A DNA stretch of 64,000 nt from Escherichia coli (GTDB lineage: Bacteria; Pseudomonadota; Gammaproteobacteria; Enterobacterales; Enterobacteriaceae), in assembly GCF_050920415.1 (NCBI RefSeq), contig NZ_CP169309.1, one strand, 5' to 3'. The position numbers were made by a program, and so were the translations under genes. The notes beneath the pieces are model-generated. The model saw nothing but the letters and a program-made list of their open reading frames with translations, did no database searches and was not told where the DNA came from. The number at the start of each line of letters is the position of its first letter. The first letter of the stretch is position 1. Shown here piece by piece: positions 62,400 to 63,229 of this stretch.

Positions 62400-63229
62400 C
62401 AAAGTTTTAACACATAAGAGAACTATCATAATTCAGTAAAATAACAAAAAAGAGGTCTTTCTATGACTTATCAGAACTCCCTTTTTATTGTTATCCATAA
62501 TTGTTCAGCCGACCAATACTATAAATCTGACATTTGACATGCCTCCTTTGCCGTTCTGATACGTTACTTGTATTACAGTTATCAAACCCACAAATACAAC
62601 GGGCGTGTTATATGCCCGTTCAATACTTAATAGGTATAGCGTTAACATATTCTTGATAGCATGTATTGCATACCTCCAGCCTTAGAGTTATCTCCGGCTA
62701 ACTCCACCAAACATGGCTGCACACAGCCAGATAAGAACGCTTGCGCGCATCTGGATATCATACCGCTGCTGGAACTGTTTCTTAATCATCCTACCTTATT
62801 AGACCTATTCGATACTGGCCATTATGAAGGACGCAAAGTAAGCGCTTTTTATGCGTTTTTGCTGAGTTATCATCACGTTACCTTAATATTATCAGGAACG
62901 AGTTAACGCTGCTCATAACGGTCAAACCGATACTATAAAGCCCAATAATTGAAACCTTTTCATCATGTCAGGAAGATAGTCATCCTTATGATCTTTATAT
63001 AAAAAAGCCAACCATGGGGTTGGCAAAGTGGCACAAACCAGCATAAAAGCTATGCTTTGTTTACAAATCTTCTTTGAATTAAATATATATCGTCCTGACT
63101 AAACAGAACTAAAACGGAATGAATTATTTAATCATGTTACTAAATTTCATTTTGTTTAGCCTCTGTTGAGATCCCTTGTTTTAAATTTCATTTAGATAAA
63201 ATTCTTAATTAAATCCTTGGGAGTCAATT

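Follow-up and report, generated by a model that had tools for sequence, protein, structure and literature searches.

The spacer between ycgX and an AriR paralog in a divergent Escherichia coli allele is very probably a mosaic of relics with a likely promoter

What do the 830 bp between ycgX and the following AriR-like gene hold in Escherichia coli, and is the short ORF within them a gene? We addressed this question in a stretch of 64,000 nucleotides from contig NZ_CP169309.1, hereafter the window. The spacer (62400-63229) is flanked upstream by ycgX (DUF1398; 61995-62399, plus strand), whose own upstream neighbour is bluR (61043-61774). Downstream lies a plus-strand paralog of the AriR/YmgB family (63230-63490; SD sequence GGGAG at 63219-63223), of which the 86-residue product matches the Pfam family YmgB/AriR with E=5e-14. 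The second gene 3' of the spacer is iraM, which starts at 63739. A sequence-only reading had described the spacer as AT-rich and without a convincing gene, and on both points it was right: the GC content is 35.7%, against 48.3% for the whole window, and NZ_CP169399.1, a RefSeq chromosome that is 100% identical across the region, has no annotated feature within the 830 bp. An Rfam scan of 60500-64000 (E<=1) gave no family match inside 62400-63229, and a search for tandem repeats found none. The same reading had pointed to a 24-codon ORF behind an RBS-like sequence, and had offered a small protein, a leader peptide or simply regulatory DNA as explanations.

We conclude that the spacer is, with high probability, not one feature but a mosaic of relics and a likely promoter, and that the micro-ORF is not a conserved gene. 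The first ~200 bp would be the 3' untranslated tail of the ycgX transcript, consisting of diverged ymgL-type DNA up to a hairpin, the old terminator of the convergent ycgX and icd. Next, ~35 bp left over from the 3' end of icd would mark the join between the iraM island and the chromosome, followed by ~200 bp of the dead left end of an IS3-family element with an orfA fragment, on the minus strand. In the last ~300 bp, the AriR paralog would have its promoter and 5' region, which iraM farther downstream probably shares. The icd-proximal island would, through its history, have left the whole mosaic behind. What we show here are homologies, reading frames, deletions, hairpins and the geometry of motifs; transcription, PhoP binding and any translation of the ORF are matters of inference. 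The region would be explained by known kinds of sequence, namely a PhoP-type promoter, relics of a terminator and of an IS, and a 3' tail of a type that bears sORFs in K-12, and has little wider biological weight.

The window carries a rare allele. At megablast level, window-type DNA is present in 18 of 5426 complete genomes, 16 of which have it at full length; at lower stringency, 5322 of the 5426 match parts of the spacer, mostly at 60-80% identity, and there the matching DNA is annotated as ymgL, YmgK or icd. Identity to K-12 is 98% in bluR, ~74% in the spacer and 82% in iraM. In ycgX it falls from 96-100% over the initial ~135 nt to 80-89% in the rest. Since this drop occurs inside ycgX and is carried on through the spacer and iraM, the divergent haplotype begins inside ycgX, and there is, to judge from the identity profile, a recombination breakpoint in this gene near codon 45. 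K-12-type genomes have a shorter relic zone and no complete AriR paralog. Two natural variants, EC42405 and 2020CK-00188, have lost 437 bp (about 62450-62886), a deletion that takes the ORF with its SD, the hairpin and the icd relic, as well as most of the IS relic, and in both of them the AriR paralog and iraM are still annotated as intact.

The 24-codon ORF is present as described (62463-62537, plus strand, ATG to TGA), with the product MTYQNSLFIVIHNCSADQYYKSDI, exactly the peptide first noted. The RBS-like site stands as well: AAGAGG (62450-62455) lies 7 nt before the ATG at 62463, and its duplex with the anti-SD, at -6.5 kcal/mol, is among the strongest 3% of the 1100 ATGs of the window. 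A strong SD at ideal spacing, with nothing terminator-like between the stop of ycgX and the ORF, is what one would expect if the ycgX mRNA encoded a functional small protein specific to this lineage, the product of a young gene that would replace YmgL in this allele. The statistics of the spacer argue against such a gene. ATG-initiated ORFs of 24 codons or more number 7 in the spacer, and shuffles that preserve dinucleotides contain 4.4 +/- 1.7 of them. In about 10% of the shuffles, one or more ORFs of this size have an SD that is just as strong; the 24-codon ORF with its SD is not clearly beyond chance expectation. Further points against a small protein are that the predicted fold pairs the SD region with 62481-62494, and that the peptide has neither a hydrophobic segment nor a family. 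Its longest hydrophobic run is LFIVI, short of the hydrophobic helix of ~15 or more residues expected of a small membrane protein or type I toxin, and a Pfam search with the 24 residues gave no match.

A further argument for translation comes from K-12. The segment 62433-62597 (plus strand) aligns colinearly, at ~74% identity, with the K-12 ymgL region 3' of ycgX, and SPA-tagged YmgL and YmgK were detected in MG1655 in rich medium (VanOrsdel et al., PMC6001520); neither is among the 13 of those proteins that were also seen by tetracycline ribosome profiling (PMC6001520). An SPA tag has thus detected an sORF at the same place in K-12, and translation in this DNA has a precedent, though in another frame. 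Because the homologous K-12 DNA yields tagged YmgL, the 24-residue product could be translated and even be functional. The window and the K-12 ycgX-iraM region (ymgL, 36 aa; ymgK, 14 aa) share their chromosomal position, the putative terminator hairpin after the ymgL block and the PhoP-box/-10 geometry upstream of the next gene. They differ in that the window has no intact YmgL frame and has its own 24-codon ORF in another frame, in that its YmgK frame is severed from the ATG by a 1-nt deletion, and in that it retains ~230 bp more of icd and IS relics as well as the complete AriR paralog that is deleted in K-12.

No YmgL frame with a start codon is intact in the window allele: its ATG falls in an 18-nt gap and its Trp-11 codon has become TGA, which leaves a residual YmgL-frame ORF of 23 codons from a TTG start (62488-62559, plus strand). 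The ATG of the 24-codon ORF lies inside the ymgL homology but is shifted by one frame, and in that different frame the peptide bears no resemblance to YmgL. An 18-nt indel and point changes would have created the 24-codon frame in this lineage, and the equivalent frame in K-12-type DNA, SMDD*YCLFIVTHK*SPD*YYQLDI*, is broken by three stops. The YmgK frame persists as a remnant of 24 codons from a GTG start (63028-63102, plus strand). No ATG opens the YmgK frame at the homologous position in the window, where the ATG at 63014 is out of frame with it through the 1-nt deletion and starts a 10-codon ORF; one extra T in EC42405 and 2013C-4282 brings this ATG into frame with YmgK. The SPA-validated ymgL and ymgK are therefore not maintained in a natural E. 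coli allele and are arguably dispensable or transient. The YmgL peptide, which is 36 or 41 aa long among 7 K-12-type alleles, has 18 variable sites distributed 5/6/7 by codon position, and most of its variable codons change the residue. This variation gives no sign of purifying selection on YmgL among these alleles, and the fact that YmgL itself evolves without codon-position bias also weakens the case for a functional successor.

Within the window-type alleles, the 24-codon frame is intact in 6 of 6 full-length relatives, with a single, conservative Y->F change, which would fit a functional protein. These six relatives are all at least 97.6% identical overall, and their intact ORF therefore has little statistical weight either way. 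In 2 of the 18 relatives the frame is absent by deletion. The sequence-only reading had proposed conservation analysis as a check, with a lack of conservation of the short frame counting against it, and the frame is indeed kept only within a group of near-identical alleles. A conserved small protein is thus unsupported, with three stops in K-12-type DNA and two natural deletions, and we consider a functional lineage-specific small protein highly unlikely. The 24-codon ORF is instead, with the same high probability that we give to the mosaic explanation as a whole, a lineage-specific, non-conserved frame in the ycgX 3' tail. Low-level translation of it is possible, given its good SD and its probable location on the ycgX mRNA, and neither a conserved protein nor a leader peptide is supported. 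We speculate, tentatively and with rather low confidence, that the DNA 3' of ycgX is a site of sORF turnover, at which different frames are translated in different lineages, YmgL in K-12 and the 24-codon ORF here. If true, which requires translation of the ORF at 62463, this would be natural proto-gene birth and replacement within one species.

Could the ymgL-homologous DNA act as RNA or DNA, for instance as an element in the ycgX 3'-UTR or as a 3'-derived sRNA ending at the hairpin, and not as coding sequence? Such a role would explain why the blocks CTTTTTATTG and AATACTAT..TGA.ATTTGA persist across alleles that have diverged by ~26% and that keep neither frame, and why a stable terminal hairpin is kept in all alleles examined. 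But the ~74% identity of the segment equals that of the neighbouring non-coding DNA, two natural deletion variants dispense with the segment, and the Rfam scan gave no match to it. The fold of 62400-62640 is no better than that of shuffles (z = -1.1) and supports no structured element beyond the terminal hairpin. We regard a role as an RNA or DNA element as very unlikely, and hold to a diverged, untranslated ycgX tail. A degenerate pattern of the ymgL blocks had 0 matches in a collection of species-representative genomes, and matched 13 of 16 fetched E. coli loci; a pattern of the ycgX 3' end also had 0 matches in that collection and is present in nearly all fetched E. coli loci. The E. coli representative in the collection either differs at these positions or is without the locus.

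The tail ends at the hairpin AACGGGCGTGTTATATGCCCGTT (62598-62620), which has a predicted energy of -15.4 kcal/mol on the plus and -19.6 on the minus strand (z about -3), with no U-run on the plus strand and only a broken U-run on the minus strand. In genomes without the iraM island, this hairpin would be the terminator common to ymgL and the convergent icd, and in the window it likely represents a relic of that bidirectional ycgX/ymgL-icd terminator. The window remains colinear through the hairpin into ...TTCTTGAT with a genome in which icd directly abuts ymgL. The last five icd codons read TTAACATATTCTTGAT in the window against TTACATGTTCTTGAT in the icd-abutting genome, and the icd 3' end in O157 matches the window at 83%. 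Because of this colinearity into the last icd codons, 62621-62657 (minus strand) is read as sequence from downstream of icd together with a stranded remnant of its 3' end, in which the last ~5 codons and the stop of icd occupy 62643-62657.

The arrangement resembles the icd 3'-end duplications of e14 and of the K-12 icd pseudogene fragment, in which an icd end and its terminator are stranded from the functional icd, with accessory genes between. Unlike the K-12-type icd pseudogene of 168 nt beside e14 or iraM, only the last ~15 nt of icd remain here, and unlike in elements that integrate at icd, no integrase adjoins the relic; integration and IS-mediated rearrangement are candidate routes by which the sequences were joined. 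In NZ_CP169399.1, whose strain is identical to the window, the interval from iraM to icd, beyond the end of the window (8495-12273 in the coordinates of the extracted locus), holds trkG, a transposase pseudogene and a gene for a hypothetical protein of 455 aa. The corresponding element in K-12 is e14, and the cargo of the icd-proximal island therefore differs from K-12.

The hairpin also bears on the proposal of a leader peptide, by which the short ORF would control the AriR paralog and iraM through attenuation. What speaks for attenuation is a stable hairpin ~60 nt after a short ORF. This hairpin is, though, probably the ancestral icd terminator; it is also present where no plus-strand gene follows, and has no U-tract on the plus strand. 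The ~610 nt between it and the next gene are taken up by the relics of icd and the IS and by a separate region that resembles a promoter, and the two relatives that lack both ORF and hairpin still have the AriR paralog and iraM annotated as intact. No signal of alternative pairing was seen either, the z-score of -1.1 applying to the region as a whole, and the combination that defines an attenuator, an ORF in a 5' leader with terminator and antiterminator pairings, was not found here. The leader peptide is unsupported because the ORF follows ycgX and is separated from the next gene by 690 nt, including the hairpin, the icd relic and the IS relic, and we give such a peptide almost no credence.

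Beyond an orphan segment (62658-62723), in which no similarity to icd or to the intact IS was detected, the spacer contains a decayed IS3-family element (62724-62924, minus strand). Its ends were defined on an intact copy of 1312 bp with TG...CA inverted repeats on plasmid p92944-TEM (1748-3059 of the extracted locus); the annotation of intact copies of this IS reads IS3 family transposase. In the spacer, the left inverted repeat, TGACCGTTATGAGCAGCGTTAAC..., reaches 62924 with its outer end and, like that of the copy on p92944-TEM, begins with TGACC and is followed by the orfA N-terminus, here 50% identical. The first ~50 codons of orfA are found at 62873-62724 with 3 in-frame stops, and match the reference orfA, which carries an HTH_28 domain (Pfam), in 25 of 50 residues (tblastn, E=5e-12). 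An orfA with an HTH domain and a TG terminal repeat point to an IS3-family origin. In contrast to an intact IS3-family copy, only ~200 bp are left (IS positions ~5-200), with no orfB and no convincing right end, so that a complete element with orfA, orfB and both inverted repeats is not present.

An inverted repeat, 62638-62658 with 62890-62910, was considered as the two ends of an IS and rejected, as its left arm continues the colinearity with the native 3' end of icd. This 21-nt arm (62638-62658) is read as icd relic and not as a right inverted repeat because of the icd colinearity and of an E-value of 0.27 against the intact IS. We also rejected as spurious the longest ORF of the spacer, which would encode 81 aa (62661-62906, plus strand): it is antisense to the orfA relic, and its product has no Pfam match. 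Neither this 81-codon ORF nor the 24-codon ORF should be called by annotators.

The last part of the spacer, 62925-63229 (plus strand), adjoins the AriR paralog and is ~74% identical to the K-12 region that contains ymgK and precedes iraM. Near its 3' end, a direct repeat resembling a PhoP box, TGTTTA-GCCTC-TGTTGA (63153-63169, plus strand), deviates by 1 mismatch from the consensus (T/G)GTTTA-N5-(T/G)GTTTA and is followed, 12 nt downstream, by the -10-like hexamer TAAATT (63182-63187). PhoP promoters of architecture I have a directly oriented box that precedes the -10 hexamer by ~12 nt (PMC3335776), and this is the geometry found at 63153-63187. The same arrangement of a single direct box 12 nt before a TAnnnT hexamer is present at mgtA, phoP and slyB (class II, architecture I). 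Both half-sites are invariant in 6 alleles, and the homologous site in K-12 reads TGTTTAACATCCATTGA. They are also identical to the half-sites of the shf site TGTTTA-N5-TGTTGA, at which PhoP binding was validated by EMSA and footprinting in Shigella (PMC5775216). The match to the PhoP box is not significant alone, as the window has 3 such matches where 1.37 are expected, and a count of 3 is reached in 16 of 100 shuffles.

We take 62925-63229 as likely to contain the promoter and 5' region for the AriR paralog and, probably, for iraM as well, on account of its position, its geometry and the conservation of the same arrangement in K-12, and not of the motif alone. The iraM gene that lies downstream is a known PhoP-dependent gene: induction of IraM by PhoP/PhoQ at low Mg2+ is established (PMC10948607), and in Shigella a phoPQ mutation lowers ycgW (iraM) to 0.09-fold (PMC5775216). 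Unlike at the known promoters, the PhoP site and transcription start here are putative, and the adjoining gene is the AriR paralog, not iraM. With a direct PhoP-box-like repeat 12 nt before a -10-like hexamer, transcription is probably dependent on PhoP and Mg2+, as for iraM. Of the options in the sequence-only reading, simply regulatory DNA comes closest to this picture; the last ~300 bp do look regulatory, and the remainder of the spacer is relic DNA. The PhoP-box-like site is flanked by an exact direct repeat of 12 nt, TAAATTTCATTT, at 63141-63152 and 63182-63193; the first copy abuts the box upstream and the second contains the -10-like hexamer. A second PhoP-box-like site in the window, TGTTTATGCCTGGTTGA (49546-49562; 1 mismatch), is located between minE and, on the minus strand, a large autotransporter-like ORF.

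The promoter region also contains a terminator-like hairpin on the minus strand, GCCAACC-CCAT-GGTTGGC followed by T6 (63001-63024), with a stem of 7 bp and a loop of 4 nt. The hairpin (63024-63007) with its T6 has the pattern of an intrinsic terminator and points away from the AriR paralog. It might terminate an sRNA or antisense transcript that starts near 63115 on the minus strand. The canonical hairpin with its T-run is consistent with such an RNA, as are a promoter-like site matching at 9 of 12 positions (63150-63123, minus strand) and the fold of 63120-62995 on that strand (z = -2.2). Promoter-like sites in the region are, however, fewer than in shuffles (5 vs 7.6), the hairpin is present in window-type alleles but missing from the homologous sequence of K-12-type alleles, and no Rfam family matches. 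No gene or known RNA was found upstream of the hairpin on the minus strand. We therefore regard a minus-strand RNA as improbable to a high degree, and a promoter and 5' region for the plus-strand genes as the likely function of this part of the spacer.

The phage collection gave no match to 62887-63500, which covers this region and the AriR paralog. The start of the paralog varies among relatives: its first ATG (63230-63236) is ATC in RMDEC465, 2013C-4282 and R32_14_1F, and the annotated starts are shifted downstream, giving proteins of 84 aa in RMDEC465 and R32_14_1F and of 75 aa in 2013C-4282. Where the paralog truly starts is therefore uncertain. In K-12-type DNA (BW25113, 3057-3125 of the extracted locus), ~463 nt within the region equivalent to 63230-63732 are replaced by 26 nt, which deletes most of the paralog together with the DNA that follows it. 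BW25113 keeps the SD of the paralog and its first ~12 codons as an upstream ORF of 22 codons, MQNQEINILMNHIKYRGIRHNK, and the TGA of this ORF overlaps the ATG of iraM (ATGA). The comparison suggests that the iraM promoter and leader/5' region of K-12 derive from an AriR paralog that was lost there, and the ATGA overlap suggests translational coupling of the 22-codon ORF with iraM.
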